Assembly: GCA_944390945.1 (NCBI GenBank)
Contig: CALXRV010000011.1
Span: 37,977-101,976 of the forward strand
Source of the DNA: an uncultured Clostridia bacterium
GTDB taxonomy: Bacteria > Bacillota > Dehalobacteriia > UBA4068
Length of the DNA stretch: 64,000 bases
Reading direction: 5' to 3'
Below, piece after piece: positions 9,717 through 40,256 of the stretch (its first letter is position 1; each line of letters opens with the position of its first letter). The notes under the pieces were generated by a model. The model was not told where the DNA came from and did no database searches. It saw only the letters and a list, made by a program, of their open reading frames with translations. A program made the translations under genes and the position numbers.

Positions 9717-10799
9717 ATGTCGCAGGGTTATCTCATCTTGGAGGACGGTCAAGTCTTCACCGGCACACGTTGCGGCGCTGCAGGCGAAGTTATTGGCGAG
9801 CTGGTCTTTACCACCGGCATGACTGGTTATCTGGAAACATTGACCGACCCCAGTTATTTTGGGCAAATCATCATGCAGACTTTCCCTCTGATTGGGAATT
9901 ACGGTGTGATTCCAGAAGATTTTGAAAGCGACCATATCCATGCGAAAGCATATATCATACACGAGCTTTGCGCAGAGCCCAGTAATTTTCGCAGCCAAGG
10001 CCCCTTGGACGATTTTTTGAAGCAGCAGGGCATCCCCGGCTTGCGTAATGTAGATACGCGACGTCTGACCAGAATTGTTCGTGAACATGGCGTGATGAAT
10101 GCCATGCTCAGCGATAAGCCACAGTTGAATGCTGATCAAAAAGCCGCTCTACAGAATTATCGCGTCAAAGATGCGGTGTCGGCGGTAAGTTGCCAGCAAG
10201 CATCCAGTGCAGGCGAAGGTCGGCCTGTAGTGCTCTGGGATTTCGGCGCAAAAGGCCATATCCAGCGTGAACTGCTGCAGCGTGGTTGCCGTGTGATCAC
10301 CATGCCAGCAAGCACAACCGCCAGCGAAATTCTTGCCCTAAAGCCGCAGGGCATTGTACTTTCCAACGGACCGGGAGACCCGGCAGAAAACACGAAGATT
10401 ATTCATGAGCTGCATCTTTTGACCCAAAGCGGCATTCCGCTGTTTGGCATCTGCCTGGGGCATCAACTTTTAGCGCTTGCTTGCGGCGGCAAAACCGAAA
10501 AAATGAAATATGGGCATCGTGGCGCCAATCAACCGGTAAAAGATATGGATACCGGTCGTGTCCACATCACCAGTCAAAACCATGGTTATTGCGTGGTGGC
10601 GGAAAGCCTAGGGGCTGATGCGCAAATCAGCCATTGCAATGTCAACGACGGCAGCTGTGAAGGCGTGCGCTACAACAGTTTCCCTGCCATATCGGTACAA
10701 TTCCACCCGGAAGCTTGCGCCGGGCCACTCGATGAGCGTTCTATGTTCGATGATTTTATCACCATGATCAAGGAGGTCGGAGCAAATGCCGCTCAATAA
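9717..10799 (+). CDS. carA: Carbamoyl-phosphate synthase small (glutamine amidotransferase) subunit
   Basis: MSQGYLILEDGQVFTG...GEVIGELVFTTGMTGYLETLTDPSY is the canonical CarA N-terminus. GATase triad region GICLGHQLL. Start placed at the ATG at 9717 with GGAGG 6 nt upstream; the ORF track begins at an upstream TTG. Confidence 0.9.
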   Translation: MSQGYLILEDGQVFTGTRCGAAGEVIGELVFTTGMTGYLETLTDPSYFGQIIMQTFPLIGNYGVIPEDFESDHIHAKAYIIHELCAEPSNFRSQGPLDDFLKQQGIPGLRNVDTRRLTRIVREHGVMNAMLSDKPQLNADQKAALQNYRVKDAVSAVSCQQASSAGEGRPVVLWDFGAKGHIQRELLQRGCRVITMPASTTASEILALKPQGIVLSNGPGDPAENTKIIHELHLLTQSGIPLFGICLGHQLLALACGGKTEKMKYGHRGANQPVKDMDTGRVHITSQNHGYCVVAESLGADAQISHCNVNDGSCEGVRYNSFPAISVQFHPEACAGPLDERSMFDDFITMIKEVGANAAQ

Positions 10800-13700
10800 A
10801 GACATCAAACGTACATTGGTCATTGGCTCCGGTCCGATCGTCATCGGACAGGCGGCAGAATTCGACTATGCAGGCACACAGGCATGCCAGGCGCTGAAAG
10901 CAGATGGCATCGAAGTAATTCTGGTCAATTCCAACCCGGCCACTATCATGACGGATGGCCACATGGCCGACCATATTTATATTGAACCGTTGACGCTGAC
11001 CACCATCAAACGAATTATCCGCAAAGAAAAGCCGGACAGCATCCTCCCTACCCTGGGCGGACAGACCGGCCTGACGCTTGCCATGCAGCTGGCAAAGGAA
11101 GGGTTTCTGGCAGAACATGGCGTAAGGCTGCTTGGCGCCAGGCCGGATACGATCGACCGTGCCGAGGACAGGCTGCTGTTTAAGGAAGCGATGGCTGCCA
11201 TCGGGCAGCCAGTTGTTCCCTCCGACGTAGCGGAAGACCTGGATAGCGCGCTAGCCTTCGCCAGGCAGATCGGGTATCCGATCATTGTGCGGCCGGCTTT
11301 CACCCTAGGCGGCTCTGGCGGCGGCATTGCATATGATGAGAATGAACTGCGCGAAATTGCAACGCAGGGCCTGCGCGTCTCGCCGATCCACCAGATCCTG
11401 ATCGAGCAATGTATTTCCGGCTGGAAAGAAATTGAATTTGAAGTGATGCGCGATGCAGCTGGCAACTGTATTACGATTTGCTCGATGGAAAACTTTGATC
11501 CGGTGGGCGTGCATACCGGAGACAGCATCGTAATCGCCCCTGCCGTAACATTGGCGGATCGCGAATATCAGATGTTGCGCAGCGCTGCACTGCAGATCAT
11601 CGATTCGCTCGGGGTGGAAGGCGGCTGTAACTGTCAGTTCGCACTGAATCCCAACAGCATGGAATATGCGGTAATCGAAGTAAACCCACGCGTCAGCCGT
11701 TCTTCTGCACTGGCCAGTAAAGCGACCGGTTATCCGATCGCCAAAGTGGCAACCAAGATCGCCATTGGTTATCTGCTGCCGGAAATTCCGAACGCAGTCA
11801 CCGGCGGCAAGACCAGCGCCTGCTTTGAGCCGACGATCGACTATGTTGTGGTAAAACTGCCAAAATGGCCATTTGATAAATTTGTATATGCTAAGCGGAA
11901 CCTGGGCACGCAGATGAAGGCGACCGGTGAAGTGATGGGAATTGGCACTACTTTTGAAGAAGCGCTGATGAAAGCAGTACGTGGCGCTGAGATTGGCCGC
12001 GATACCCTCACCATGCCTGCACTGGCGCAGGCAACACCGGAAGAACTTGCGACCAAGCTGGATGATTGTGATGATCAGCGGCTGTTTGCTGTATATGCTG
12101 CAATCAAGGCCGGCGTTTCACTGGATATCATCTATGAAAAAACAAAGATCGATCGCTGGTTCCTTGCCAAGCTGCGGCATCTGGCGGAAACCGAACAGCG
12201 TCTGCTCACCGAACCACTGGATGACGAACTGTATCATAGCGCTCGCCAACTGGGATTTCTTAATGGCACGATCGAAAAACTGAGCGGACAGAAAATCCAA
12301 GCGCCAACCTATCCCGTCTATCGCATGGTCGATACCTGTGCGGCGGAATTCCGCGCGGAAACGCCATATTTTTATGCAGCCTGCGAGGGAGAAAATGAGG
12401 CAGCAGAATTTTTGGCCAGCCGCCCGGAATCGCGGCGCACGGTCGTCGTCTTCGGCGCCGGGCCAATCCGTATCGGCCAAGGTATCGAATTTGACTACGC
12501 CAGCGTTCACTGCGTCTGGTCTCTGCGCAAATGCGGTTATGATGTGGTGATCGTCAATAACAACCCGGAAACTGTCTCCACTGATTTTGATACAGCAGAC
12601 CGTCTCTATTTTGAACCACTGACACCGGAAGATGTGCTTGGCGTGCTGCGCACCGAAAAGCCTTATGGCGTTGTCGTGGCTTTCGGCGGACAAACGGCGA
12701 TCAAGTTAACCAGCTTCCTGGCTGAACAGGGATATCATATCCTAGGTACGCCGGCAGATAGTATCGATGCAGCGGAAGACCGTGAACGTTTTGATGCCCT
12801 GCTCAGTAAACTGGAGATCAAGCGACCGCAGGGACTCACGGTGATGACAACGGAAGAAGCGCTTGCTGCCGCAGAAAAGTTGGGTTATCCGGTATTACTG
12901 CGCCCGTCTTATGTCCTAGGCGGCCAGAATATGATCATTGCGTTTCAGCCAGACGACATCCGTGAATATATGGCGATCATCCTGGCACAGGGCATCAAAA
13001 ACCCCGTGCTGATCGACCAATATCTGATGGGAACAGAGCTGGAGGTAGATGCAATTTGCGATGGCGAAAATGTGCTAATCCCCGGTGTGATGGAGCATAT
13101 CGAGCGGGCCGGCGTGCATTCCGGCGATTCGATTGCCGTTTATCCGGCATGGAATGTAGATGATTCCATGTTGCAGCGCATTGTAGACTGCTCGCAGCAG
13201 CTGGCGCTCGGGCTGCATGTCTGCGGACTTGTTAATATTCAATACTTGATCTATCAAGATGAATTATATGTAATTGAAGTTAACCCGCGTTCTTCCCGTA
13301 CGGTCCCCTACCTAAGCAAGGTCACCGGCGTACCGATGGTAGATCTTGCCACCCGGGCCATGCTGGGAGAAAAACTGACGGATATGGGTTATGGTACTGG
13401 CCTGTACCCGATCCCGCCATATGTAGCGGTAAAGGTGCCTGTCTTTTCCTTTGAAAAGCTGGCGGACGCAGATACCCTGCTCGGGCCGGAGATGAAATCC
13501 ACCGGCGAAGTTCTTGGCGTTGCCAGCACGTTGTCAGAAGCTTTATATAAAGGGCTGACAGCAGCAGGCTATCGTATGGATAGCCATGGCGGCGTATTGT
13601 TTAGCGTTAAGAATACAGACCGGCCGGAACTGTACGATGTTGCTAAACGCTTCAGTGATCTCGGCTGCCCGCTTTATGCCACGCCCGGCAATGCACGCGT

Positions 13701-14835
13701 ATTACGCGAAACCGGCTTGCAGGTAACCGAAGTGCCTAAGCTTTCTTCTGGCAGCGATATGTTGCTGGAACTGATCGATCGCGGCGACATCGCCTATGTC
13801 GTCTCCACCTCAGCAAAAGGTCGTATCCCCACGCGTGACAGCGTGCGCATCCGGCGTAAAGCAATCGAGCGGGCTATCCCCTGCCTTACTTCAATCGATA
13901 CCGGCAATGCGCTGGCGGAAAGCATGGAAAGCCGTTATTCACAGCGCAACACGGAACTGGTGGATCTCAACCACCGCCGGCAAAGCCGGGTTCGGCTGCA
14001 TTTCTCCAAACTACAGGCCTGCGGCAGCGACTATCTCTGCTTTGATTGTCGCGACCAGCTGTTGGAGAATCCGGAAGGCCTGGCACTGCGTCTGAGCCGG
14101 CAGCATATCGGGATTGGCAGTTCTGGACTCTGCCTGCTCGTCCCTTCAGCAGATGCAGATTTCCGTATGGCAGCATACAACCAGGACGGCAGCGAAGACA
14201 AGATGAATGGGAACGCGTTGCAATGCCTGGCGAAATACGCGTCTGACCGTGGCATCATTCCCGCCGACCGTTTACATCTGCGCGTGGAAACCCGCAGCGG
14301 CATTCGCGATGTTTATCTGCATAAACGGAATGGTGAAGTCAAAGCCGTGACCGTTGATATGGGACCGGCGCGATTCGAAACAGCAGCACTGCCGGTAAAA
14401 CTGACTTTGCCGCAGCTGATCGATTATCCGCTTGCCGTGGGCAGTGGACACAGGATCACCTGCCTCAGCCTGGGTAACCCCCATGCGGTGACCTTTGTAG
14501 ATCAGATTGATTCCTTAAACGTCGCGCAGGAAGGGCCGCTGATTGAGCATGCAGAAATATTTACGGCACGCGTCAATGCTGAATTTGTGCGCATGCTGAG
14601 CGAAACTGCCTTGCGGATGCGTGTTTGGGAACGCGGCAATGGGGAAACGCCTTCTTGTGGCACCGGCGCCTGCGCTGCTGTTGCCGCTGCAGCGGAAAAT
14701 GGTTTTTGCCAGCGGGATACCGATGTGACGGTAAAAATGCAGGGCGGCGAGCAGGTGGTGCGCTATCTTTCCGATGGCAGTATCCGTACCACTGGCGAAG
14801 TAGAATTTGTCTACGAAGGAACAGTCGAAATCTAG
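10786..14835 (+). CDS. carB: Carbamoyl-phosphate synthase large subunit fused in frame to a C-terminal DapF-like (diaminopimelate-epimerase fold) domain, 1349 aa
   Basis: Residues 1 to about 1050 are a canonical CarB (two ATP-grasp halves, oligomerisation and MGS-like domains). A ~20-aa linker follows (YSQRNTELVDLNHRRQSRVR). Then comes a 279-aa DapF-like domain from nt 13996: FSKLQACGSDY, NQDGSEDKMNGNALQC, SLGNPHAV, WERGNGETPSCGTGACAA. The frame is continuous with no stop codon and no in-frame ATG/GTG/TTG at the junction. The ATG overlaps the carA stop. Confidence 0.8.
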   Translation: MPLNKDIKRTLVIGSGPIVIGQAAEFDYAGTQACQALKADGIEVILVNSNPATIMTDGHMADHIYIEPLTLTTIKRIIRKEKPDSILPTLGGQTGLTLAMQLAKEGFLAEHGVRLLGARPDTIDRAEDRLLFKEAMAAIGQPVVPSDVAEDLDSALAFARQIGYPIIVRPAFTLGGSGGGIAYDENELREIATQGLRVSPIHQILIEQCISGWKEIEFEVMRDAAGNCITICSMENFDPVGVHTGDSIVIAPAVTLADREYQMLRSAALQIIDSLGVEGGCNCQFALNPNSMEYAVIEVNPRVSRSSALASKATGYPIAKVATKIAIGYLLPEIPNAVTGGKTSACFEPTIDYVVVKLPKWPFDKFVYAKRNLGTQMKATGEVMGIGTTFEEALMKAVRGAEIGRDTLTMPALAQATPEELATKLDDCDDQRLFAVYAAIKAGVSLDIIYEKTKIDRWFLAKLRHLAETEQRLLTEPLDDELYHSARQLGFLNGTIEKLSGQKIQAPTYPVYRMVDTCAAEFRAETPYFYAACEGENEAAEFLASRPESRRTVVVFGAGPIRIGQGIEFDYASVHCVWSLRKCGYDVVIVNNNPETVSTDFDTADRLYFEPLTPEDVLGVLRTEKPYGVVVAFGGQTAIKLTSFLAEQGYHILGTPADSIDAAEDRERFDALLSKLEIKRPQGLTVMTTEEALAAAEKLGYPVLLRPSYVLGGQNMIIAFQPDDIREYMAIILAQGIKNPVLIDQYLMGTELEVDAICDGENVLIPGVMEHIERAGVHSGDSIAVYPAWNVDDSMLQRIVDCSQQLALGLHVCGLVNIQYLIYQDELYVIEVNPRSSRTVPYLSKVTGVPMVDLATRAMLGEKLTDMGYGTGLYPIPPYVAVKVPVFSFEKLADADTLLGPEMKSTGEVLGVASTLSEALYKGLTAAGYRMDSHGGVLFSVKNTDRPELYDVAKRFSDLGCPLYATPGNARVLRETGLQVTEVPKLSSGSDMLLELIDRGDIAYVVSTSAKGRIPTRDSVRIRRKAIERAIPCLTSIDTGNALAESMESRYSQRNTELVDLNHRRQSRVRLHFSKLQACGSDYLCFDCRDQLLENPEGLALRLSRQHIGIGSSGLCLLVPSADADFRMAAYNQDGSEDKMNGNALQCLAKYASDRGIIPADRLHLRVETRSGIRDVYLHKRNGEVKAVTVDMGPARFETAALPVKLTLPQLIDYPLAVGSGHRITCLSLGNPHAVTFVDQIDSLNVAQEGPLIEHAEIFTARVNAEFVRMLSETALRMRVWERGNGETPSCGTGACAAVAAAAENGFCQRDTDVTVKMQGGEQVVRYLSDGSIRTTGEVEFVYEGTVEI

Positions 14836-19167: not shown

Positions 19168-20784
19168 TTATGCTTGTGATTTTTTGCGCATGACAACCCG
19201 CAGGCCAGCCAGAACCAGAACCATCAACACGACGGAAAGCGGTAACATAATCCAGGCATTGCGGATCAAGGCAGCCAGGATATAACAGACCAAGCTGACG
19301 CCGGCAACCAGCAACGCATAAGGAATTTGCGTGGACACATGGCTGATATGGCTGCACTGTGCGCCGGTGGAAGCCATGATCGTCGTATCAGAAATCGGAG
19401 AGATATGATCACCGCAGACAGCGCCGGCCAAAACGGCGGAAACTGCGATCACCATCATTTCACCGCCTTCTGCAAAGAGGGACAACACGATCGGAATCAA
19501 AATAGCAAAGGTACCCCAAGAAGTTCCTGTAGCAAACGCCACCCCGAGCGCAATCAGGAACATCACTGCCGGCAGTAGGAAGCTGGCAGCGGCACTACCC
19601 CTTACTGCCTGTTCAACAAAGGCAGAAGAACCAAGAGAATCATTGCAGAAGCCGGAAAGCGTCCAGGCCAGAACCAAAATGAGGATCGCCGGCACCATCG
19701 CACGGAAGCCATCTGGAATGCAGGCAGCGAACTGCCGATAAGTCAATACACGGCGGGGGATATAAAGTAAAAAAGTAAGCACCAGGGTGGCAAAGCTGCC
19801 CAGCACCAGACCAACCGAAGCATTGCAATCTGCGAAAGCAGTGATAAAGTCCACGCCGTCAAAAAAGCCGCCGGTATAGATCATGCCGATCACGCAGCAG
19901 ATGATAAGGAGGACGATTGGGATAACCAGATCCAACACATGACCCTTGCTCGTCACCGGCTCTTCATCTGCCGCAGCATAAGGCCTGTCTTCAGTAGTAT
20001 AAAGATCGCCCGCCAAAGCATTTAGTTCATGTTTGGCCATCGGGCCAAAATCCAGTTTCATCACGGCAAGGCAAATCATCATGGTCAAAGTCAGCCATGC
20101 GTAATAGTTATAAGGGATACTTTGCAAGAACATGGCAAAGCCATCGATATGGAATCCCTCAGCGGAAGAAGTAACCGCAGCCGCCCAGCTTGAAATCGGC
20201 GCAATAATGCAGATCGGCGCTGCGGTAGCATCAATGATATAGGCCAGTTTAGCACGGGAAATATTAAATTTATCCGTTACCGGACGCATTACGCTGCCTA
20301 CGGTCAGGCAGTTGAAATAATCGTCGACAAAAATCAGGACGCCCAGACCCGTCGTTGCCAGCAGGGCGCCAGAACGGGATTTAATGCGTTTTGCCGCCCA
20401 TGCACCATAAGCAGCCGAGCCACCGGCGCGAGTCATCAATGCAACAATGATGCCCAGCATAACCAGGAAAATAAGAATCGCCATATTCCCACTGTCCCCG
20501 GCCTTGCCGATCATCATATCCAGGAGCGAAGTAACGGTATGTACCGGTTGAAAACCCGCATAAAGCAGCGCACCACAGACTGCGCCCAGAAACAGTGAAA
20601 TATAGACCTCCTTGGTGATCAATGCGATCACGATCGCAACCAACGGCGGCAGCAAAGACCAGACTGTCCCGAAAAAGCTGCTCTGATACGCCTCCCCATC
20701 CTCTGCCAGCACTGTAGTACTGCAGATAAGAAGCAGCGCCAGTACGAGGATGAAAAAGAGCATCCTTTTTGCCAACAAACGCAT
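19168..20784 (-). CDS. lysW: NhaC-family (Na+/H+ antiporter-like) transporter; putative lysine transporter of the LysW type, based on the lysine riboswitch in its leader
   Basis: 538-aa polytopic protein with NhaC-family blocks (LGVLIFVDDYFNCLTVGSVMRPVTDK...). Start placed at ATGCGT (MRLLAKRM) with SD GGGGGGAG. A lysine riboswitch lies 5' of it. The ORF-track start is 15 codons further upstream. Confidence 0.75.
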   Translation of the reverse strand: MRLLAKRMLFFILVLALLLICSTTVLAEDGEAYQSSFFGTVWSLLPPLVAIVIALITKEVYISLFLGAVCGALLYAGFQPVHTVTSLLDMMIGKAGDSGNMAILIFLVMLGIIVALMTRAGGSAAYGAWAAKRIKSRSGALLATTGLGVLIFVDDYFNCLTVGSVMRPVTDKFNISRAKLAYIIDATAAPICIIAPISSWAAAVTSSAEGFHIDGFAMFLQSIPYNYYAWLTLTMMICLAVMKLDFGPMAKHELNALAGDLYTTEDRPYAAADEEPVTSKGHVLDLVIPIVLLIICCVIGMIYTGGFFDGVDFITAFADCNASVGLVLGSFATLVLTFLLYIPRRVLTYRQFAACIPDGFRAMVPAILILVLAWTLSGFCNDSLGSSAFVEQAVRGSAAASFLLPAVMFLIALGVAFATGTSWGTFAILIPIVLSLFAEGGEMMVIAVSAVLAGAVCGDHISPISDTTIMASTGAQCSHISHVSTQIPYALLVAGVSLVCYILAALIRNAWIMLPLSVVLMVLVLAGLRVVMRKKSQA

Positions 20785-20852
20785 GAAACTCCCCCCTAAA
20801 TACGAAATCGATGAAAACAAATGCAACATAGCCGACCCTTGCTCGCTTTCCC

Positions 20853-21073
20853 CAAATAAAAACAGCAGCCAGATACGGACGCATCACGGCTGCCAATAAG
20901 CTACAGACAAGGCCAATGATAGCGCTCCACGATCGTGACAGTCCGTTACATATTTTGCAACGACCCAGCACAGAACAGGCAGGCCCCCATACTGTACTTC
21001 GGCGGAAACGCCTTTTCCCCGTCGCACGGCCTGTGCGTTCAATCGGGGTACTCATCATTCCCGCGCCTCTATC
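20853..21073 (-). ncRNA. Lysine riboswitch (L-box) with its terminator expression platform, in the 5' leader of the NhaC-family transporter gene
   Basis: On the minus strand the hallmark L-box blocks appear in order: GATAGAGGCGC, GAGTA, GCCGAAG, CTGG, GTCA, GGAGCGCTATC (which closes P1). A GCAGCC/GGCTGC terminator hairpin with TGTTTTTATTT follows at + 20853-20893. Confidence 0.8.
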
Positions 21074-21104
21074 TTTCGGCGAAAGCTTTTATGCAATTAT
21101 CAAT

Positions 21105-24802: not shown

Positions 24803-27800
24803 ATGTTCATTGCAGATCTGCATATCCATGCTAAATATTCCCGCGCCACCAGCCAGGACTGCATACCGGAACTGCTCGATCAGGCAGCGCGACAAAAAGG
24901 CTTATTGCTGTTGGGAACTGGCGATTGTACGCATGCCGCCTACCGTGCAGAGCTACGCGAACAACTGGAGGAAGCAGAAGACGGCCTTTATCGGCTGAAG
25001 CCGAGTCTGGTTCGCCCGCTGTCGGGCGCACTGCAGGATGCACCTGCCCCGCGCTTCATCATCAGCGGCGAAATCAGCACCATTTATAAACAGAGCGGCA
25101 AAGTACGCAAGATCCATCATCTAATCCTCTTCCCTTCCCTGTCTGCAGCAGAGGAACTCAGCCGCCGTTTGGAGCAGCTCGGCTGTAATCTGCATGCTGA
25201 TGGCAGGCCGATTATTGGTCTTTCCAGCCATGATCTGCTGGAACTAACGCTGGATGCCTGCCCACAGGCCATCTTTATCCCAGCGCATATCTGGACGCCA
25301 CATTTTTCCCTATTTGGCGCATATTCCGGTTTTGATACTGTAGAAGAATGCTTTGGCGACCTGACGCCACAAATCCATGCGCTGGAGACCGGGCTTTCCG
25401 GAGATCCGCCTATGCATTGGCGGCTTTCCCAGCTGGACCGCTACGCACTTGTATCCAATTCCGACGCGCATTCGCCAGCACGGCTGGCGCGCGAAGCAAA
25501 CCTCTTCTCCTGCGAGCTCAGCTATCCAGCACTTTCGGAAGCGCTTTCCACACCGCATCATCCCGGATTTTATGGCACGATTGAATTCTTCCCGGAAGAG
25601 GGGAAATACCATTACGACGGACACCGCAACTGCCATGTCAGCCTAGCGCCGGCAGAAACTGAGGCGCTGCAGGGTGTATGCCCGGTTTGCGGCGGCAGGT
25701 TGACCGTCGGCGTACTGCATCGTGCTGATGCGCTTGCCGACCGGCCATTAGGCTTTCATCCACCGCAAGCACGGCCATTTGAAAGCCTGGTACCGTTGGT
25801 CGAAGTGATCGCTGCCTCCAGCGGCCTTAGCCCCAACAGCGTCAAAGCGCGGCGGCAATACGATGCCTTGTTGCAAGTTTTGGGACCAGAGCTTCGCATC
25901 CTGCGTGAAACGCCGCTCGAACTGGTCGAGCAACATGCAGGCATCTGCGTGGCAGAGGGATTGCGCCGCCTACGTGCGGGTGAAGTACGCGTCACCCCAG
26001 GATTTGATGGCGAATATGGCAAAGTGAGCATTCTGGACGCTGAAGATATTGACCGGCTTAGCGGTCAGGCTTCTCTGTTCGCATGCTCATCTGCCGAAGA
26101 AAAATTCAGTCCAGACACCATCCACGCTGAGCCTGCGACAAACATCGGGCATCCCGCCCAGACCGGCAAGAACGAGAAGGCAAGAACGGATGTGGAACTC
26201 AATGCGGCACAGTTACGCGCCGTACACAGCACGGCTGCGACAACAGCTGTCATCGCCGGACCTGGTACTGGCAAAACAAAAACGTTGATCAGCAGGGTCA
26301 TCGAGTTGATTGAAACGCGCGGCGCTGCAGCGGAAGAAATTACGGCAGTTACCTTCACCAATAAGGCGGCAGCAGAGCTTCAGGAACGCTTGAAGGCACA
26401 TTTTCATGATAAACGACTGGTCCGGGAAATCCATGTCGGTACATTCCACAGCCTTTGCCTGCGCTTGCTTACTGCTGCGGGGCAAGCGCCCGTCATCCTT
26501 GACGGGGCAGAGGCACGGTCGATCGCTGCTGATCTGGTTACGGAACTGGGGCTAAAAAGCAGCGCAAAGGAAGCTTTGTCCTGCATTTCCCGTCATAAAA
26601 ACACCATGACTGCGGCTGAAAATGTAGAAGAAGCCGAGCTGGTCGCTGCTTATCAGGCCTCATTGCAGCAGCTTGGCGCACTGGATTTTGATGATATCCT
26701 CTCCGCTGCGCTGCAGCTGTGCGAGCAACAACCACAGCGATTGGGCAACATGTGCCGCCACCTGTTAGTCGATGAATTTCAGGATATCAACGAGGTGCAA
26801 TACCGCCTGATCCGCGCCTGGCAGCGCCAGGGTGAAACCTTGTTTGTGATCGGCGATCCAGATCAGGCAATCTACGGCTTTCGTGGTGCATCCGCAGATT
26901 GTTTTACTCAGTTACAGGCAGATCAACCGGATCTGGAGCTGATCCGGTTGACGAAAAATTATCGTTCAACACCAGAGATCCTTGCCGCCAGCCTGCCCGT
27001 CATCAATAAAAATCCCGGTGCACCACGCCAACTGCAGGCAGCTCGCCCACATGGGGACAAACTGCGCCACTATCACACAGCCAGCGCTGACCCGGCTTTT
27101 CAGGAGGCCATTTTTATTGCCAAAGAGATTAACCGTCTCGTCGGTGGTATCGATATGTTACAGGCGCATGCCGATGGCAGTGCATCAGCAGCGCGCAGTT
27201 TTCGTGATATCGCCGTCCTCTACCGTACACATCGCCAAGCGGAAATGATTGCCTATGCTCTGGAGCATGACGGCATCCCCTATACAGCGGCCGGCCGGGA
27301 GGAGCTGCCGGAAGATGATATCATTCGCGATACGCTTGCCTTCTTCCGCTTTCTGCTCAACCCGGCAGATCTAATCTCTCTGCGGCGGACTTTGCTTGCC
27401 AGCGGGGCTTCGCTTGCCACACAACAGCAGCTGTGCAATGCCTATGCTGGCCTACGCAAAAAAAGCGTTGCTGGGTTAATAAAGCAGATTGCTGCGCTGG
27501 GGGAAGATGCCTCGTTACATCGGTTTGCAGAACAAGTAGCTGTCTATACCACGCGCATGCGGCGGGAAAAACCGCATAAGCTGCTGTCCAGCTGGATTGA
27601 GGAAAACCATCTCAGCGGTATCGCCGCCCTGGAAGACCTCTGCCAGATAGCAGTTCTTCAGCCCAGTATGTCCAGCTTATTGCAAACGCTGGCGCTGGGA
27701 TTGGATGCTGATATCGTCAGAAATGGCAGCCAAACCTGCCAGGCCGATGCCGTTCGTCTGATGACGTTGCACGCTGCCAAAGGGTTGGAATTCCCCGTTG

Positions 27801-28042
27801 TCTTTCTCTGCGGCATCCGAGACGGCTGTTTGCCGCTGCAGATCGGTGGCAGCAGCAATCTGGAAGAAGAGCGCCGCTTATTTTTTGTCGGCATGACCCG
27901 CGCAGCAGAAACGTTATATTTACTAACAGGCGATCCGCCTTCGCCTTTCTTCAGCGCCATTCCAAAAGCGCAACTGGAGACAATCCATCCACAGCAGAGA
28001 CGTCCACAGCCGCTGGGCAAACAGCTCAGTCTGTTCGACTAA
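24803..28042 (+). CDS. Fusion protein: N-terminal EndoQ-like PHP-domain nuclease with zinc ribbon (about 420 aa) joined to a C-terminal UvrD/Rep-family superfamily-1 helicase (about 650 aa)
   Basis: N-terminus ADLHIHAKYSRATS, LLGTGDCTH, IHHLILFPSL, ADGRPI, IPAHIWTPHFSL, LSGD, SNSDAHSP, EGKYHYDGHRNC, CPVCGG and GFDGEYG track the conserved blocks of endonuclease Q. The C-terminus has helicase motifs: IAGPGTGKTKTLISR (motif I), TFTNKAAAELQERL, VDEFQDIN (II), GDPDQAIYGFRGA, TKNYRSTPEIL, LMTLHAAKGLEFPVVFL, FFVGMTRAAETLYL. SD AAGGAG. Confidence 0.8.
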   Translation: MFIADLHIHAKYSRATSQDCIPELLDQAARQKGLLLLGTGDCTHAAYRAELREQLEEAEDGLYRLKPSLVRPLSGALQDAPAPRFIISGEISTIYKQSGKVRKIHHLILFPSLSAAEELSRRLEQLGCNLHADGRPIIGLSSHDLLELTLDACPQAIFIPAHIWTPHFSLFGAYSGFDTVEECFGDLTPQIHALETGLSGDPPMHWRLSQLDRYALVSNSDAHSPARLAREANLFSCELSYPALSEALSTPHHPGFYGTIEFFPEEGKYHYDGHRNCHVSLAPAETEALQGVCPVCGGRLTVGVLHRADALADRPLGFHPPQARPFESLVPLVEVIAASSGLSPNSVKARRQYDALLQVLGPELRILRETPLELVEQHAGICVAEGLRRLRAGEVRVTPGFDGEYGKVSILDAEDIDRLSGQASLFACSSAEEKFSPDTIHAEPATNIGHPAQTGKNEKARTDVELNAAQLRAVHSTAATTAVIAGPGTGKTKTLISRVIELIETRGAAAEEITAVTFTNKAAAELQERLKAHFHDKRLVREIHVGTFHSLCLRLLTAAGQAPVILDGAEARSIAADLVTELGLKSSAKEALSCISRHKNTMTAAENVEEAELVAAYQASLQQLGALDFDDILSAALQLCEQQPQRLGNMCRHLLVDEFQDINEVQYRLIRAWQRQGETLFVIGDPDQAIYGFRGASADCFTQLQADQPDLELIRLTKNYRSTPEILAASLPVINKNPGAPRQLQAARPHGDKLRHYHTASADPAFQEAIFIAKEINRLVGGIDMLQAHADGSASAARSFRDIAVLYRTHRQAEMIAYALEHDGIPYTAAGREELPEDDIIRDTLAFFRFLLNPADLISLRRTLLASGASLATQQQLCNAYAGLRKKSVAGLIKQIAALGEDASLHRFAEQVAVYTTRMRREKPHKLLSSWIEENHLSGIAALEDLCQIAVLQPSMSSLLQTLALGLDADIVRNGSQTCQADAVRLMTLHAAKGLEFPVVFLCGIRDGCLPLQIGGSSNLEEERRLFFVGMTRAAETLYLLTGDPPSPFFSAIPKAQLETIHPQQRRPQPLGKQLSLFD

Positions 28043-33592: not shown

Positions 33593-34087
33593 TTATAAAC
33601 GTCGCGTCCTGATGTCAACAATCATAGTCGCCAACTGATCGATGGCTGCCAGCATTTCCGGGCAAGGTGATGTGGCAAATTCCATTTCGCCAGGCTGAAT
33701 ACCGACCACCAGTACAGCACAGCCGGTCTCCGAAGACAGATAATCCAACATCACATGCAGGGGCAGCATATGCGTCGAGCAGCCCATTCCGTCTATTTCT
33801 GCCGGGTCGCAACAGCGCATCGTCCCGACTTCACCGCCGACATGGGCAGCATCAACCAGCAGCAACAAATCTGGCTTAAAGTGGCGAATCATGCCTGTAA
33901 AATTCTCCGGCGCCGTGCTCCCTGCCAGCAGCAAGCAGTCCGCATCCTCGGCCAGTTGCATACGCAAACGCTCGATCAGCACCATTCCGGCGGCATCATC
34001 ACCGCAGAGCTCTGACCCCACGCCTAGAATGGCAATCCTGGGCGCAGCAGTCAACATTTCTTTTAACTGTTCCTGCCAGCCGATCAT
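33593..34087 (-). CDS. [NiFe]-hydrogenase maturation endopeptidase (HycI/HyaD family)
   Basis: IAILGVGSELCGDDAAGMVLIERL...LLVDAAHVG matches the hydrogenase-protease signature, including the conserved metal-binding Asp/His region. Confidence 0.8.
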   Translation of the reverse strand: MIGWQEQLKEMLTAAPRIAILGVGSELCGDDAAGMVLIERLRMQLAEDADCLLLAGSTAPENFTGMIRHFKPDLLLLVDAAHVGGEVGTMRCCDPAEIDGMGCSTHMLPLHVMLDYLSSETGCAVLVVGIQPGEMEFATSPCPEMLAAIDQLATMIVDIRTRRL

Positions 34088-34443
34088 AGCTTAACCTTCA
34101 ATGCTTCTCGGCTCATGTCTGCCAATTCAATATTCGGCGTAAAGGAAAGGCAGCCCTTTCTGCAACTGTCCACGCATTGCGCGCAGAAGATGCAATGCCC
34201 CAAATTCAGATGGCATTCAAACTTCTTCTCTTCTTTTGTCCCTACATTAACGATGCTGATCGCGCTGGCGGGACAATCACGCACGCAGAGATTGCAGCCG
34301 ATACAATCGTCCGCATTATACTGTATTTTTCCCCGATAATGCGGTTCAATCTCCAGCTTTGCCGCAGGATATGCGATCGTCGCCGGTTTTTTCAGCAGAT
34401 GCTTCAATGCAAAGCCGGCGATCCTGCCGGGTGAACGTTTCAT
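34084..34443 (-). CDS. Hydrogenase 2x[4Fe-4S] ferredoxin subunit (NuoI/EchF/MbhN-like)
   Basis: CIGCNLCVRDCP and CIFCAQCVDSC motifs in a 119-aa protein inside the hydrogenase operon. Confidence 0.8.
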   Translation of the reverse strand: MKRSPGRIAGFALKHLLKKPATIAYPAAKLEIEPHYRGKIQYNADDCIGCNLCVRDCPASAISIVNVGTKEEKKFECHLNLGHCIFCAQCVDSCRKGCLSFTPNIELADMSREALKVKL

Positions 34444-35378
34444 CAGGCAAGCACCCCTTTCAGCAGCAGATTGGCAATGATCTGGATCAATGCCAGCGGC
34501 GTTAAGTATTTCCAGCAGAAAGCGACCATCTGCTCAATCCGCACACGCGCCATAATCGAACGCAACAATGCAAGGATAAAGAGAATGACCAGCGTCTTTA
34601 GAATGTATACCCCAAACCCTGCCCATGCGCCTGCCGGATAAAAAGGCAGAAACACGGCGGAGATCAGCGATGCGACCACCACCAGTTCGCAGTCAATCGC
34701 CATGCGGAAAATGGCATAAAGACGGCCGCTGTATTCCACAAACGTGCCGCCAGCCAGCTCTGTCTCAGCCTCTGGCAGATCGAACGGCACGCGCTCCAGT
34801 TTACCCTGGCAAGCGATGACCGCCACCAGAAATGCCGGAATGTTGATCAGCAGATACAGCGGATGCGTGCTGTAATAGGCCGTCATCCCGGAAAGGGACC
34901 AACTATCCGCCAGCAATGCCGGCGCCAGCAGGGCCATGAACAGCGGTACCTCATAGGAAAAGAGCTGCGTCAATGCACGCACTGCGCCAATCGTGGCATA
35001 AACACTGGTGGAATACCAACCAGCCAGGAAAAAGCATAGCGTAGGCAGCGTCAGCAGATAAAGCAGTACGATCAAATCCCCTTCAAATGGATACAATGAA
35101 GTGGAGGACCAGATCGGGATATAGAGATAAGCCGCGGTAACGGCAGCCAGCGCCATCACCGGCAGGAAAACAAATACTCGTTTATCCGCATGCTCCGGGA
35201 TGATGGTCTCCTTCCCCAGCAGCTTCAGAAAGTCAGCCAGCGGCTGATACCAGCGTGGGCCACGACGGTTCTGCAGCCTGGCATACAGCTTACGGTCGAT
35301 AAAGGAAAAGACCAAAGCATATGCGCCCAGAAACAGCATGCCCGGGAAAATCAGAATATGAAATAATGCTAACAGCAT
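34443..35378 (-). CDS. Hydrogenase membrane subunit (NuoH/EchB/MbhM-like)
   Basis: 311-aa polytopic protein. LQNRRGPRWYQPLADFLKLL is the NuoH-family signature. Confidence 0.8.
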   Translation of the reverse strand: MLLALFHILIFPGMLFLGAYALVFSFIDRKLYARLQNRRGPRWYQPLADFLKLLGKETIIPEHADKRVFVFLPVMALAAVTAAYLYIPIWSSTSLYPFEGDLIVLLYLLTLPTLCFFLAGWYSTSVYATIGAVRALTQLFSYEVPLFMALLAPALLADSWSLSGMTAYYSTHPLYLLINIPAFLVAVIACQGKLERVPFDLPEAETELAGGTFVEYSGRLYAIFRMAIDCELVVVASLISAVFLPFYPAGAWAGFGVYILKTLVILFILALLRSIMARVRIEQMVAFCWKYLTPLALIQIIANLLLKGVLA

Positions 35379-35398
35379 AATATCCCTTCCTTCCGATG

Positions 35399-36616
35399 CT
35401 AGCGGATAATCTTCCGCTCCGCAATCTTGATCTTCGAGGCATCAAATCCCTGTTTCTTGTAGTGCTCTATGCCGTAACGGCGCAACGCTGCCCAATCCCA
35501 GACACGCTCGCCTGCGGCGGAACGCAGCACGATCGAGCGGTCCGTGCAAGAATAGCAGGGGTCAATGGCAGCGATGATAATCGGCACATCCGCCAGATAA
35601 TCACCCTCCAGCATATGCTTTACGCTGTGCCAGTTCGCCTCCGAAGCCGCACGCACGCGCACACGGTCCGGTTTATCCGTACCATTCGCACGGACATAAT
35701 GCGTATCTTCACCGCGCGGCGCTTCTGTCCGGCTGAACACTTCCCCTTCCGGAATCCGCCGCGGCATCTTTGCCGTCAGTTCGCCGTCAGGCAGATTATC
35801 CAGCGACCAGCGGATCATTTTAATGCTCTCCATGATTTCCAGCACACGCACAACAGCACGGCCGAACACATCGCAGTGGTCATCCGTAATCGCAGTCACC
35901 GGCACTTCGTCATAAGCTGCATACTTGTCGATCACACGAATATCCGTATCAACATTGGAAGCGCGCGAGACCGGACCAACTGCGCCCAGACGCAAAGCAT
36001 CCTCATGCGAAAGCTTACCGATCCCGGACAGACGCGCCGCCAATGTGGTCTCGCTCAATGCAAGCTGAATATAATATTTATTCTGCTCCTCAACGATATC
36101 CAGCATGGCACGGATCTCGTCCGCCATCTGCGGTTCCAGGTCGCGGCGCACACCGCCCAACGTATTGATGCCGTAATTCACGCGGTTCCCGCCCAGCTCT
36201 GCCAGGATATCGAGCACCTTTTCCCGGTCGCGCCAAGAATACATGAATAAGGTATCAAAGCCAATCTCATGAGCAGCCACGCCAAGCCAGAGCAAATGGC
36301 TGTGCATGCGCTCCAACTCTGCCATGATGACGCGGATATAAGCGGCACGACGCGGAATCTCCACACCGGCCAGTTCTTCTACCGCCTGGCAAAATGCAGT
36401 GCTGTGCGTATGCGAGCAAATCCCACAAACGCGCTCAATGATATACAGGTCCTGAATATAGGTACGGGCTTCACAAGCCTTTTCCAGACCACGGTGGTTA
36501 TAGCCAACGCCAACCACGGCATTGACCACCTTTTCGCCCTCCAGCGTAATCGTAAAGCAGCCCGGCTCTTTCAGCGAAGGGTGCTGCGGTCCGATCGGTA
36601 TCGTGATCTTGCTCAT
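35399..36616 (-). CDS. Group 4 [NiFe]-hydrogenase large (catalytic) subunit (NuoD/EchE/MbhL-like)
   Basis: N-terminal Ni-binding RVCGICSHTHSTAF (CxxC) and C-terminal DPCYSCTDR (CxxC) motifs. Confidence 0.9.
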   Translation of the reverse strand: MSKITIPIGPQHPSLKEPGCFTITLEGEKVVNAVVGVGYNHRGLEKACEARTYIQDLYIIERVCGICSHTHSTAFCQAVEELAGVEIPRRAAYIRVIMAELERMHSHLLWLGVAAHEIGFDTLFMYSWRDREKVLDILAELGGNRVNYGINTLGGVRRDLEPQMADEIRAMLDIVEEQNKYYIQLALSETTLAARLSGIGKLSHEDALRLGAVGPVSRASNVDTDIRVIDKYAAYDEVPVTAITDDHCDVFGRAVVRVLEIMESIKMIRWSLDNLPDGELTAKMPRRIPEGEVFSRTEAPRGEDTHYVRANGTDKPDRVRVRAASEANWHSVKHMLEGDYLADVPIIIAAIDPCYSCTDRSIVLRSAAGERVWDWAALRRYGIEHYKKQGFDASKIKIAERKIIR

Positions 36617-37131
36617 TGCTCATCCTCCTTTTGCGCAGCTTCCGGCGCAGGCGGATTATACGTCATCGTATTGCGGTCGAAATACTCAACCTTCCATTCC
36701 TTGCGCAGCGGGTAGTTCCCTTCCGGCCAACCATCCGGTAACGGATAGCTGGGGCCAGGCGGCAGCTCTTCCACTTGGGCGCCAAACAGATCCACCAGTT
36801 CACGTTCATGCCATAAGGCATTCGGAAAACGGGAACAAACCGATTTGATCACGGGTTTGGCTTTTGGCGCCTTCTGCTTGACCAGTAAAATGACATTATC
36901 ATCGTTGGAAATGGCGTAAATAAATCCCAAATTCTCTCCGTCATCCACCCCGATCACCAGATGAAAGGTATTGAAGCCGCCTTCAGTAGTCAGAAAGGCG
37001 AATACCTTTTCAAAATCGCGGCGCACCAGCGGATCCATGATAACGCGCTGACGGCGCTGCAGATGCACATAGCCGTCGAGCACCGGGAAACGCTCCAATA
37101 TCATATCAACGACTTTCTGTTCAGCCTGCAT
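36613..37131 (-). CDS. Hydrogenase subunit NuoC/EchD/MbhK-like (30-kDa-subunit family)
   Basis: 172-aa protein with the NuoC fold signature (ERELVDLFG). It overlaps the large-subunit gene by 4 nt. Confidence 0.75.
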   Translation of the reverse strand: MQAEQKVVDMILERFPVLDGYVHLQRRQRVIMDPLVRRDFEKVFAFLTTEGGFNTFHLVIGVDDGENLGFIYAISNDDNVILLVKQKAPKAKPVIKSVCSRFPNALWHERELVDLFGAQVEELPPGPSYPLPDGWPEGNYPLRKEWKVEYFDRNTMTYNPPAPEAAQKEDEQ

Positions 37132-37145
37132 CGATTATCCCTCCC

Positions 37146-37610
37146 CTACTGTTCCGACGGCTCGGCCTTTTGCGCGGCCTCCAGAGCGGAGAGCAGCTTG
37201 ACCACGGCGTCTATGATCGCTTCCGGCCGTGCAGCGCAGCCCGGCACATAAGCGTCGACCGGTATGACGGAATCGATGCCGCCACTCACACAGTAGCAGC
37301 CATCAAAGATGCCGCCGGTGCAGGCACAGGTACCTACAGCCACCACAAATTTCGGCTCTGGCATTTGTTCATAAATCTGTTTCAGACGATCCCGCGTCTG
37401 CAGGGTAACGGCACCCGTGCAAACCAACACATCTGAATGGCGCGGCGTCCCCTGCTGCAGAATGCCGAAGCGCTCCAGATCATAGCGGGGGGTTAGCGCA
37501 TCCACGACTTCGATATCACAGCCATTGCAGGCGCCGGCATTAAAATGAATGATCCACGGCGATTTGCGGCGCCCCCAATCCACCGCGCGTTCCAAAATAT
37601 TTTTCGCCAT
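37146..37610 (-). CDS. Group 4 [NiFe]-hydrogenase small subunit (NuoB/EchC/MbhJ-like)
   Basis: Proximal-cluster cysteines CNGCDIE...GTCACTGG...C. 154 aa. Confidence 0.85.
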   Translation of the reverse strand: MAKNILERAVDWGRRKSPWIIHFNAGACNGCDIEVVDALTPRYDLERFGILQQGTPRHSDVLVCTGAVTLQTRDRLKQIYEQMPEPKFVVAVGTCACTGGIFDGCYCVSGGIDSVIPVDAYVPGCAARPEAIIDAVVKLLSALEAAQKAEPSEQ

Positions 37611-37613
37611 AAT

Positions 37614-37934
37614 TTACCTCCGGAAGATGATCAGCAGCGCCAGCACGCCGGCAGCCACATATAACAATGGCAACGTCAGCGCATCAGCCGGTGCGGTGGC
37701 CACGACAAGCACCAAAACGTGCATTACGGTGAAGAAAAAGGCATACGGATAAAATTGCCCGTAATCCGGCACAACATTATGCGTCACATTCCGCTGGCCG
37801 CAGGCATAAGATTCCAGCTTGCGCTGGCTATCCTTACCCGGCGCAGCAAGCGAGGCTGCCAGATAGGAGAGGATCAGGCCCACCAACAGCAGCACGAGCA
37901 GCGCCAGCGGCGGCGAAAGCAAGATCTGCGTCAT
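37614..37934 (-). CDS. Small membrane subunit, NuoA-like (MbhI-like)
   Basis: 106 aa, 3 TM. KLESYACGQ resembles the NuoA ExYECG motif. Confidence 0.55.
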   Translation of the reverse strand: MTQILLSPPLALLVLLLVGLILSYLAASLAAPGKDSQRKLESYACGQRNVTHNVVPDYGQFYPYAFFFTVMHVLVLVVATAPADALTLPLLYVAAGVLALLIIFRR

Positions 37935-37948
37935 AACAATTTTCCCTC

Positions 37949-38257
37949 CTAACCGTTCAGTCTATTCAGCTTGCGGATATCCAGATCGCCATTGTGCCGG
38001 TAAATGCGGATGGCAATACCCGCCGCCACTACGGCTACGACGACCTCGATCACGATGACAGTGACGATAAAAGCCTGCGGCAGCAACTCGCTGCCATTGA
38101 TATATCCGGCCAGGATCAGCAGCAGCGTAATCGCCTTCATCACGATCTCCACCGCAATGATGATGCGAATCAGATTATTTGTCCGCACCAGCATGAACAA
38201 GCCAGTAACGATCAGCAGAAACGCTGTAACCAGCATGGCCATAGTCAATGTATTCAT
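37949..38257 (-). CDS. MrpC/MnhC/NuoK-like membrane subunit
   Basis: 102 aa, 3 TM, with an MrpC-like sequence (LIRIIIAVEIVMKAITLLLI...). Confidence 0.7.
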   Translation of the reverse strand: MNTLTMAMLVTAFLLIVTGLFMLVRTNNLIRIIIAVEIVMKAITLLLILAGYINGSELLPQAFIVTVIVIEVVVAVVAAGIAIRIYRHNGDLDIRKLNRLNG

Positions 38258-38754
38258 GCCTTATCACTCTCCTTGAACAGGATTGCCACGGCAAAAGCGC
38301 CAGCCAGGATCACGATGATCTGGCCCAGAACATCCGCCTGACGCATATTCCACAACACATCCTTAAAGCTCAAGCCCACCAGCGCAGCATTGGCCTGCGG
38401 CTCGATATGGAAACCGGTCGCCGCAATCACTACCATCAGCATCATGCCGGTTGCAATCAAAATAAACGGCAACCCCGCCACACGTTTACGGTGTTCCTCC
38501 TCGTTCTCCGGCTGATGGCGCGAGGTGGAAGTCAGGCTGATCGCGCTGGCAAAAACAACCGTAACCAAACCGGCACAGACCGAAAGCTCAAATAAAGCTG
38601 CCCAGGTTGCTCCCATTAGATAAAGGACACAGGCGAGCAATGCGCTGACCACGGCCAAGGAAACGGCACATTTCAGCATGCTGCGAAACATGGCACAGGC
38701 GATGGCGGCGATCACGATGAAAGCTAGACAGATGAGCAAAATCGTTTCGTTCAT
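38254..38754 (-). CDS. MrpB-like membrane subunit
   Basis: 166-aa, 4-5 TM protein in the Mrp module. Overlaps neighbours by 4 nt. Confidence 0.55.
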   Translation of the reverse strand: MNETILLICLAFIVIAAIACAMFRSMLKCAVSLAVVSALLACVLYLMGATWAALFELSVCAGLVTVVFASAISLTSTSRHQPENEEEHRKRVAGLPFILIATGMMLMVVIAATGFHIEPQANAALVGLSFKDVLWNMRQADVLGQIIVILAGAFAVAILFKESDKA

Positions 38755-38769
38755 ATCACCACACCTCCC

Positions 38770-40242: not shown

Positions 40243-40256
40243 TCAAATCACCCCTT

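Follow-up and report, generated by a model that had tools for sequence, protein, structure and literature searches.

What does a diaminopimelate (DAP) epimerase fold contribute to carbamoyl-phosphate synthase (CPSase) once it has lost one of its two catalytic cysteines? The question is raised by a gene of an uncultured Clostridia bacterium, which lies in a 64,000-nucleotide (nt) stretch (hereafter the window; 53% G+C) of contig CALXRV010000011.1 (GenBank assembly GCA_944390945.1). This gene, here written carB::dapF' (10786..14835, + strand), encodes the CPSase large subunit, CarB, continued in frame by a domain of the DapF family in which asparagine stands at the position of the catalytic Cys73. 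Comparison with related sequences revealed that loss of Cys73 is recurrent in DapF domains fused to CarB and rare in standalone DapFs, a pattern pointing to a non-epimerase role of the fused domain for which no description was found.

CarB and DapF in one reading frame

The carB::dapF' open reading frame (ORF) starts with ATG, contains no internal stop codon and encodes 1349 amino acids (aa) followed by a stop. Residues 1-1051 (10786..13938, +) make up a complete CarB that matches positions 1-1050 of the 1058 in profile NF003671 and comprises two pre-ATP-grasp plus ATP-grasp units, the oligomerisation domain and the MGS-like allosteric domain. Scores against the CarB equivalog models lie above their cutoffs (NF003671, 1455 bits, cutoff 599; TIGR01369, 1400 bits, cutoff 1027), and Pfam recognises CPSase_L_D1 and CPSase_L_D2 (two matched stretches each), CPSase_L_D3 and MGS. 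The last of these (PF02142, 50.6 bits) covers aa 949-1035 (13630..13890, +), and it is to this domain that the DapF-like module is tethered. K954, T974, T977 and K993 of E. coli CarB, which we take to be residues of its UMP/IMP site, are mostly kept: T974 and K993 are unchanged in the alignment, K954 is replaced by R and T977 by N. By every sequence criterion except length the protein is a CarB; it extends about 280 aa past the usual end, an additional C-terminal domain that is absent from the CarB of E. coli (1073 aa) and from an unfused clostridial CarB (1069 aa; locus L074). As expected for a CarB, it is preceded by and overlaps (by 14 nt) the 3' end of carA, the gene for the glutamine-amidotransferase small subunit of CPSase (9717..10799, +; NCBIfam NF009475, 463 bits). 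Gene callers place the start of carA at the equivalent of 9717 on identical contigs, giving 360 aa, whereas the ORF listing sets its start further upstream, at the TTG at 9699.

Alignment to E. coli CarB (NC_000913.3) indicates that the CarB part reaches its natural C-terminus. Specifically, the segment TELVDLN of the fusion takes the place of EKVISVQEMH in E. coli, and after about eight further residues the DapF sequence begins at the equivalent of its residue 2. The CarB C-terminal tail and this short spacer together span aa 1052-1070 (SQRNTELVDLNHRRQSRVR; 13939..13995, +), and the junction motif TELVD(I/L)N is nearly invariant among fused homologues. On this alignment, carB and dapF are joined as a plain end-to-end gene fusion. 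The remaining residues, aa 1071-1349 (13996..14832, +), form a full-length DapF fold that runs from about residue 2 of E. coli DapF to its C-terminus. The DapF equivalog TIGR00652 matches aa 1072-1347 over profile positions 2-268 of 270 (213.9 bits in the fusion and 219.2 bits with the tail alone, cutoff 114.65), Pfam DAP_epimerase (PF01678) scores 142.7 bits in the full protein and 149.4 bits with the tail alone, and the best match by sequence among solved structures is PDB 2otn (2.3e-52).

The original prediction that CarB runs into the DapF domain without a stop codon is borne out by independent assemblies. A protein identical over its 1349 aa is encoded on seven contigs, and the four contigs that were read (one Logan run and three ENA assemblies, with sample names resembling those of human-gut metagenome studies) represent independent samples. 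Their ORFs are 99.73-99.95% identical to that of the window at the DNA level, with zero gaps, so that the frame is continuous through the 13950-14010 junction, where a lost stop codon or a frameshift had been considered. The 18 variable sites are all synonymous, including the four that fall within the tail. Within the 90% identity cluster, Asn1141, the residue that replaces Cys73, is present in 10/10 full-length members, and R1127C is the sole amino-acid variant of the tail. It had also been claimed that the junction is devoid of ATG, GTG and TTG codons, which is incorrect: an in-frame GTG occurs at 13960 (Val1059) and an ATG at 13924 (Met1047), and start-type codons are absent only over 13963-14061. 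Both codons sit within the conserved CarB C-terminus, and hundreds of homologues keep a continuous frame; since the frame is continuous and the fusion is conserved, they leave the conclusion unchanged.

A DapF fold without its catalytic pair

Residues of the tail were numbered on E. coli DapF (sequence identical to PDB 5ygu/4ijz) and aligned also to other solved DapFs. Residue-by-residue alignment places Asn1141 (codon AAT, 14206..14208, +; KMNGNALQC) at the position of catalytic Cys73 and Ser1081 (codon AGC, 14026..14028, +) at that of Asn11, where the GNDF motif reads GSDY, both as originally proposed from the sequence. Arg78 of DapF is replaced by Gln. The second catalytic cysteine is retained as Cys1291, the equivalent of Cys217 (14656..14658, +; SCGTGACAA), as is the GNPH motif (14473..14484, +) with the equivalents of Asn157 and His159; here too the first reading of the sequence was right. 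In total, the tail keeps Asn64, Gly74, Asn75, Asn157, His159, Asn190, Glu208, Arg209, Cys217, Gly218 and Thr219. The set Asn11, Asn64, Asn75, Asn157, Asn190, Glu208 and Arg209, presumably the substrate-contacting residues as in the H. influenzae and E. coli DapF structures, is conserved at six of seven positions, Asn11 being Ser. Because the general base Cys73 is gone, the canonical two-thiol epimerase mechanism cannot operate, in keeping with the initial argument that a two-base epimerase cannot work with a single cysteine.

The fold itself is predicted to be intact. An AlphaFold2 model of aa 930-1349, built from 53 homologues, has a mean predicted local distance difference test score (pLDDT) of 89, with values mostly above 90 in the DapF part apart from one dip to about 67-78, and of about 90 in the MGS-like domain. 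Foldseek aligns the tail to the DapF structures 2otn, 9mro, 3ejx, 4ijz and 1gqz with template-modelling (TM) scores of 0.84-0.90 (normalised to the target), and its matches include the C73S and C217S DapF mutant structures (PDB 2q9h and 2q9j). The model thus describes the tail as a well-folded, two-lobed, pseudo-symmetric alpha/beta DapF fold. In contrast, pLDDT drops below 50 in the linker (aa ~1051-1060) and the predicted TM score (pTM) is 0.67, so that the placement of the CarB end and the DapF domain relative to each other is not predicted.

Other members of the superfamily are more distant. The Chlamydia-type bifunctional DapF/glutamate racemase model NF038284 yields 88 bits with the tail and 83 bits with the fusion, against a cutoff of 350. 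The proline racemase family PF05544 reaches 27.9 bits with the tail (cutoff 27), in a match confined to its aa 47-134, and 21.9 bits with the full protein, and structures of the proline racemase family resemble the tail at the superfamily level only (TM about 0.6, 14-19% identity in Foldseek); the tail appears to be a superfamily relative of PF05544 and not a member. It belongs to the DapF family by fold and by model score, sharing with DapF proper (TIGR00652/PF01678; 2otn, 4ijz, 1gqz) the full two-lobed fold, the eleven pocket residues listed above and an aromatic residue at the Tyr268 position. It differs in the replacements at positions 73, 11 and 78, and in being the C-terminal domain of a CarB, within a clade of fusions that has seen repeated replacement of Cys73, whereas DapF is a free protein of about 280 aa. 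As it lacks the catalytic pair that defines the enzyme, its annotation as EC 5.1.1.7 is not warranted.

Recurrent loss of Cys73 and preservation of the pocket

Position 73 was surveyed in 287 non-redundant DapF domains, 249 fused and 38 standalone. Cysteine occupies it in all 38 standalone DapFs (38/38), whereas only 117 of the fused domains have kept it; in the other 132 it is replaced by Ala (83), Gly (36), Ser (9), Asn (3) or Thr (1). An independent control with the 150 best representatives at 50% identity, about 134 of them short proteins, gave a similar picture for free DapFs: both cysteines are present in 120 of these ~134, the few others being pieces of fused genes or uncommon variants with Ser73. 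When the CarB parts of 161 full-length fusions are placed on a neighbour-joining (NJ) tree, parsimony requires at least 13 changes between the Cys and non-Cys states. Position 73 is Ala, Gly or Ser in the relatives nearest to the window protein (70-81% identity), the closest of which (P0135, 81%) also has Ser11 and Gln78 in common with it. The asparagine on which the original prediction had focused is thus not special: it is one of five replacements, and the position appears unconstrained once the cysteine is gone, to judge from these alignments. Among the representatives at 50% identity, a few rare standalone proteins of the DapF family also depart from the canonical pair, namely P0348 and P0392 (283-285 aa), P0332 and P0310, in which Ser at position 73 (Ser/Cys) or a Ser/Ser or Tyr/Ser pair is seen; these are possible free-standing non-canonical relatives of DapF.

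Loss of Cys73 has not been accompanied by decay of the pocket around it. Across the 132 Cys-less domains, positions 64, 74, 75, 157, 159, 190, 208, 209, 217, 218 and 219 have a mean conservation of 0.983, compared with 0.67 over all columns and a mean pairwise identity of 56%. Cys217 is kept in 127/132, and 129/132 retain an aromatic residue where DapF has its dimer residue Tyr268. Other positions have shifted: residue 76 is N, S or C in 58/132 Cys-less and 0/155 Cys-containing domains, Ser occurs at position 11 in 5/132 and 0/155, respectively, Asn11 is replaced by Asp in 15 of the Cys-less domains, and further changes affect positions 211 (S to N), 155 (M to V) and 8 (G to S or A). These second-shell shifts may partly reflect shared ancestry. 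Relocation of the catalytic thiol to a neighbouring position was considered and rejected, as Cys76 occurs in only 11/132 Cys-less domains and Cys9 is common in all three classes, standalone DapFs included.

At intermediate distances, the ratio of tail divergence to CarB divergence is 1.76-1.99 for pairs of Cys-less fusions versus 1.52-1.66 for Cys-keeping pairs. Cys-less tails therefore evolve about 15-20% faster relative to CarB, a modest relaxation. These comparative data fit a changed function and not decay. In this respect the earlier suggestion that the domain is neofunctionalised appears to hold, given the ~98% conservation of the pocket, whereas its more specific proposals, a binding module or a new chemistry, stand as candidates.

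Distribution of the CarB-DapF architecture

The architecture is far from rare. A search with the full protein returned 120 top matches, all of them fused (120/120; 1344-1355 aa), and among the 120 top matches to the junction and tail most carry both MGS and DAP_epimerase, the shorter ones carrying DAP_epimerase only; these include Christensenellales, Oscillospiraceae and Ruminococcus bicirculans. The closest named relatives, at 73-74% identity, are Ruminococcaceae and Oscillospiraceae metagenome-assembled genomes (MAGs), which would make a gut-dwelling member of the Oscillospirales the most likely source of the window. A scan of GTDB with one genome per species, in which tail identity to the window is at most 52% among the matches listed, found at least 42 fused ORFs (about 1300-1450 aa) among the 80 loci listed, plus one cut by a contig end. 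Their hosts are Ruminococcus, Oscillospiraceae, Christensenellaceae, Neglectibacter and Acutalibacter, as well as MAGs labelled Treponema, Spirochaetaceae and Selenomonadaceae. The last group includes Cys-less fusions in Treponema/Spirochaetaceae MAGs (L014, L023 and L030; longer, at 1398-1451 aa) and in a Selenomonadaceae MAG (L032), which could be due to horizontal transfer of the fused gene or to binning contamination. In an NJ tree of the DapF domain the fused copies form essentially one clade, with 113 fused and 9 standalone domains under a common ancestor, as would fit a single fusion event or a small number of them.

The fusion is therefore widely present in related genomes, as had been asked of them, and the rarity implied by the original prediction does not hold, since the architecture is common and is annotated in databases, where homologues are named either 'carbamoyl-phosphate synthase large subunit' or 'diaminopimelate epimerase, partial'. 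The part of the claim that has stood concerns the literature: no paper describing the CarB-DapF fusion, or natural DapF domains without Cys73, was found. Likewise, we could not find a description of the recurrent loss of Cys73, of pocket preservation after the loss, or of the split in genomic context described below.

Two kinds of rearranged gene were seen among the homologues. Three independent assemblies (L085, L086 and L087) of a related species, about 71% identical to the window protein over the tail and the C-terminal region of CarB, carry a carB frameshift at about the same place, aa 865-885, and gene callers report a 464-aa 'MGS+DapF' protein (P0001) from them. The possibility that P0001 is a free-standing MGS+DapF protein was rejected, because tblastn finds the frameshifted carB directly upstream on the same contigs; the frameshift is either real, making this a pseudogene of that lineage, or a recurrent assembly error. 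In P0003 (476 aa) and P0005 (379 aa; on the 2.9-kb contig L089), CarA is represented by its N-terminal 105-145 aa, which are fused in frame either to the CarB end and a Cys-less DapF-like domain or to that domain directly, and the CPSase core is missing. An IPCLT motif near the joins is common to CarA and the CarB tail, and the two proteins are either variants with an in-frame deletion or chimeras created by assembly.

Genomic context of the fused genes

Neighbourhoods were compared at 43 fused loci, in 32 of which carA lies upstream of the fusion. Two contexts stand out. On the one hand, the gene for the LL-DAP aminotransferase DapL (TIGR03542, 503 bits, cutoff 365) follows the fusion in eight loci, seven of them Cys-keeping, and pyrG follows it in eight, six of them Cys-keeping. 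On the other hand, argF, encoding ornithine transcarbamoylase (TIGR00658, 419 bits, cutoff 281), precedes carA in 12 loci and argD does so in seven, and all of these are Cys-less. A Ruminococcaceae MAG (GCA_012729855.1; 74% identical, Ala73) exemplifies the second context with the order argC-argJ-argB-argD-argF, two genes, carA-carB::dapF'. The unfused clostridial locus L074 has the order carB-nadE-dapF-dapL.

Cys-keeping fusions of Ruminococcus and Oscillospiraceae (P0152, P0157, L003 and L019) share with the window protein the architecture, the junction and the DapF clade, at 66-68% full-length identity. They differ from it in having both cysteines and, typically, dapL or pyrG as the next gene, whereas the window protein has neither Cys73 nor either neighbour. 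Sequence and context suggest that these relatives are probably genuine bifunctional CarB/DapF enzymes.

A canonical standalone dapF accompanies the fusion in two genomes, Neglectibacter caecimuris (L015) and a MAG of Acutalibacter (L031), where it is found 0.7-1.8 kb further downstream in the order carA-carB::dapF'-small gene-dapF-pyrG (L015, 2932-9656; L031, 2078-7703), indicating that the fused copy is not needed as an epimerase there. The fused domain of L031 lacks Cys73 (S73), His159 (GNPS), Glu208 (WKRG) and Cys217, and its carB is apparently split into two ORFs.

As to lysine metabolism, none of the ~45 other ORFs of the window was annotated by Pfam or NCBIfam as a DAP/lysine biosynthesis gene, and an Rfam scan found no regulatory RNA near carAB. 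The sole Rfam match is a full-length lysine riboswitch 6 kb downstream (20912-21079, - strand; RF00168, 97 bits), which precedes a gene of the NhaC/Na_H_antiporter family (19168-20829, -). This suggests lysine-regulated uptake in the window organism, which bears on its need for a DAP/lysine pathway of its own. In the nearest relative (81%; L090, 1-3448), dpaA-dpaB-asd-dapA lie 6-10 kb upstream of carA-carB::dapF', which marks that lineage as a spore-former type that has, at the least, the upper part of the DAP/dipicolinate pathway.

A proposed ligand-binding pseudo-epimerase at the allosteric end of CPSase

That the domain has been retained with its pocket intact argues for a role in which a ligand is bound but two-base chemistry is dispensable. 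The reading that we tentatively prefer, at a little under an even chance, is that the tail is a ligand-binding, catalytically disabled pseudo-epimerase placed at the allosteric end of CPSase, where the DapF module directly follows the MGS-like domain at the natural CarB C-terminus. In an ancestor of these fusion-bearing Clostridia, carB would have been fused end to end with a functional dapF in a cluster of the carAB-dapF-dapL type. Fusions that still lie beside dapL with both cysteines would have remained true bifunctional enzymes, whereas many lineages, including that of the window, would have relinquished the epimerase role and kept the domain for another. The epimerase function may have passed to a second dapF, as in the two genomes above, or have been replaced by Ddh or by a pyridoxal-phosphate (PLP)-type DapF2. 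The amino-acid pocket would have stayed under strong selection, while no stereocentre could be inverted by a two-thiol mechanism without Cys73. The candidate ligand would be DAP or a diamino or ureido acid of similar size from the arginine pathway, such as ornithine or citrulline, this second option being considered in view of the arginine-operon context. Once the DapF lobes had closed on it, as they usually do in DapF, the effect would be felt by the allosteric domain of CarB next to them or in how CPSase oligomerises. The evolutionary history, the binding of a ligand, its nature and any coupling to CPSase activity are all inferences.

A more specific and rather doubtful form of this proposal holds that the Cys73-less module could be an unrecognised sensor of a diamino or ureido amino acid (DAP, ornithine or citrulline) in clostridial CPSase. 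Such a sensor might operate in the arginine-operon-linked CPSases of abundant gut Oscillospirales and adjust how much carbamoyl phosphate is made or how the enzyme is assembled, a suggestion to be held with equal caution.

Several known systems resemble the fusion in single respects. A precedent for a non-catalytic role of a DapF fold comes from E. coli, where DapF activates the RNA pyrophosphohydrolase RppH by protein-protein contact (6d13, 6vck; PMC6061791); there, DapF is catalytically intact, free-standing and has an unrelated partner, and no link to RppH was seen at the window. The O-ureidoserine racemase DcsC (7vdy; 4.2e-30, TM 0.85-0.89 to the tail) is a DapF homologue that acts on a ureido (carbamoyl) amino acid, although, unlike the window tail, it is a standalone member of the D-cycloserine cluster. 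DcsC retains the two-Cys mechanism. Among CPSases, CAD and yeast Ura2 carry enzyme-derived domains on the C-terminal side, one of them possibly dead yet kept; these are eukaryotic proteins, and the added domains are folds of the same pathway, dihydroorotase (DHOase) and aspartate transcarbamoylase (ATCase), with no DapF fold among them.

Several observations weigh against the pseudo-epimerase proposal. The near-invariance of Cys217 (127/132) fits catalysis more easily than binding alone. The association between arginine operons and Cys loss may result from shared ancestry of a few clades and not from function, and the window gene itself lies outside an arginine operon, with livKHMGF upstream and bioY and a two-component system downstream. 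No second DapF homologue that could have taken over the epimerase role was found in the window: when the tail was compared by phmmer with the six-frame ORFs of the 64 kb, only the fusion itself matched, so that neither another DAP epimerase nor Ddh was found in this stretch, and the canonical dapF to be looked for elsewhere in the genome is not encoded here. The AlphaFold2 model contains no confident inter-domain interface, and a flexible tether, as the model would have it, seems less obviously suited to allosteric transmission. Finally, a physiological rationale for a connection between DAP and carbamoyl phosphate is not established.

The near-invariance of Cys217 would be accommodated by a neofunctionalised one-base enzyme, an alternative that we regard as somewhat unlikely. 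Here, Cys1291 would abstract the alpha-proton of a D-configured amino-acid centre of a DAP-like or arginine-pathway substrate, and the carbanion, for want of a thiol on the other side, would be resolved by beta-elimination or another isomerisation. By analogy, Cys-Thr trans-3-hydroxy-L-proline (T3LHyp) dehydratases would provide the parallel, having arisen from Cys-Cys proline racemases: within the superfamily, Cys-Cys enzymes are racemases or epimerases and Cys-Thr enzymes are dehydratases, and a Thr-to-Cys mutant gains epimerase activity (PMC3958920). Foldseek retrieves such a dehydratase (6r76) with the tail, the carboxylate-binding residues G218/T219 and G74/N75 are kept along with Cys217, and the correlated second-shell changes at positions 76, 211, 155, 8 and 11 are specific to Cys-less domains. 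The Cys-Thr enzymes thus share the superfamily fold and illustrate the natural loss of one catalytic cysteine with abandonment of racemisation (PMC3958920), but the T3LHyp dehydratase family is only ~14% identical to the tail and has a fixed Thr and a known substrate, whereas the replacement in the window clade varies among A, G, S, N and T without preference, as would be expected of simple loss. In addition, the neighbourhoods suggest no candidate substrate with a beta-leaving group, and an unrelated activity would give no reason for a covalent link to CarB across hundreds of lineages.

It is less plausible still, and in our view unlikely, that the tail is purely structural, i.e., that it dimerises, stabilises or cross-links CPSase protomers while its pocket is irrelevant. 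Such a role could draw on the aromatic residue kept at the Tyr268 position, given that Tyr268 is required for dimerisation of E. coli DapF (PMC6061791). The Acutalibacter fused domain (L031), which is retained beside a canonical dapF despite the loss of several pocket residues, would also fit. An inactive DHOase-like domain is kept as a structural element in the CPSase fusion of yeast Ura2. However, this explanation leaves unaccounted for the ~98% conservation of eleven ligand-contacting residues, Cys217 among them, at 56% identity, and the degenerate L031 domain is an exception, one of about 130.

Residual epimerase activity, which would make the protein a CarB/DapF with two functions, in which Cys73 gives way to water or some other residue as proton donor and acceptor, is improbable. 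It would agree with the score of the tail above the DapF equivalog cutoff, with the conservation of all DAP-contacting residues except Asn11, with the lack of another dapF within the window and with the Cys-keeping relatives beside dapL, which are probably real epimerases. Nevertheless, Cys73 is universal in the standalone DapFs surveyed (38/38), and both cysteines recur in 120 of the ~134 short representatives; Asn is no general base at physiological pH, nor is the Ala or Gly of the nearest relatives, and Asn11 is changed too. Single-Cys DapF mutants have been reported inactive as epimerases. Moreover, gut bacteria have alternative routes, as Ddh bypasses DapF (PMC9026213) and PLP-type DapF2 replaces it (bioRxiv 10.1101/2024.10.14.618325).

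An artefact, in which a stop codon lost or a frameshift introduced during sequencing or assembly merged a separate carB and dapF, can be dismissed: it has no direct support beyond the observation that the related P0001 bears a carB frameshift near aa 865-885 in three assemblies, and it is contradicted by the identical ORF on seven contigs from independent samples, gapless and with synonymous differences only, by the same junction in the 120 nearest full-length homologues and in 42 GTDB loci among those listed, and by the conserved junction motif.

Other features of the window

A membrane-bound, complex-I-like [NiFe] hydrogenase cluster occupies 33593-48626 (-) and encodes NuoH-, 49 kDa-, 30 kDa- and 20 kDa-like subunits, three antiporter-like subunits and the maturation proteins HycI, HypD (44965-46056) and HypF (46275-48626). 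HypF consumes carbamoyl phosphate, so that CPSase output also feeds hydrogenase maturation here. In another composite ORF (24803-28042, +; 1079 aa), an N-terminal region of the TIGR00375 family (aa 96-408) is followed by a helicase of the PcrA/UvrD type (aa 465-1042), and a second, ordinary PcrA/UvrD helicase is encoded at 51649-53892 (-).

Implications

CPSase holds a central place among allosteric enzymes and has been studied intensively; DapF is an antibiotic target and a textbook case of a two-base racemase. In a large group of dominant gut and rumen Clostridia, the fused domain may be the only recognisable 'DapF' signal of a genome, and about half of the sampled fused versions cannot be canonical epimerases. 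Counting a Cys-less domain as DapF would lead automated pathway reconstruction to mis-score lysine/DAP prototrophy and peptidoglycan type, and, conversely, annotating Cys-keeping fusions only as CarB would cause real DapF activity to be missed. The family also constitutes a natural experiment in domain repurposing, with more than 12 state changes at one residue, a retained pocket and a split between dapL and arginine-operon contexts. The testable hypothesis that follows is that carbamoyl-phosphate synthesis is subject to a further layer, regulatory or structural. If the sensor proposal is true, a new allosteric input would have to be written into the account of a textbook enzyme, and the family would be a clear natural example of an enzyme turned into a regulatory pseudoenzyme many independent times.

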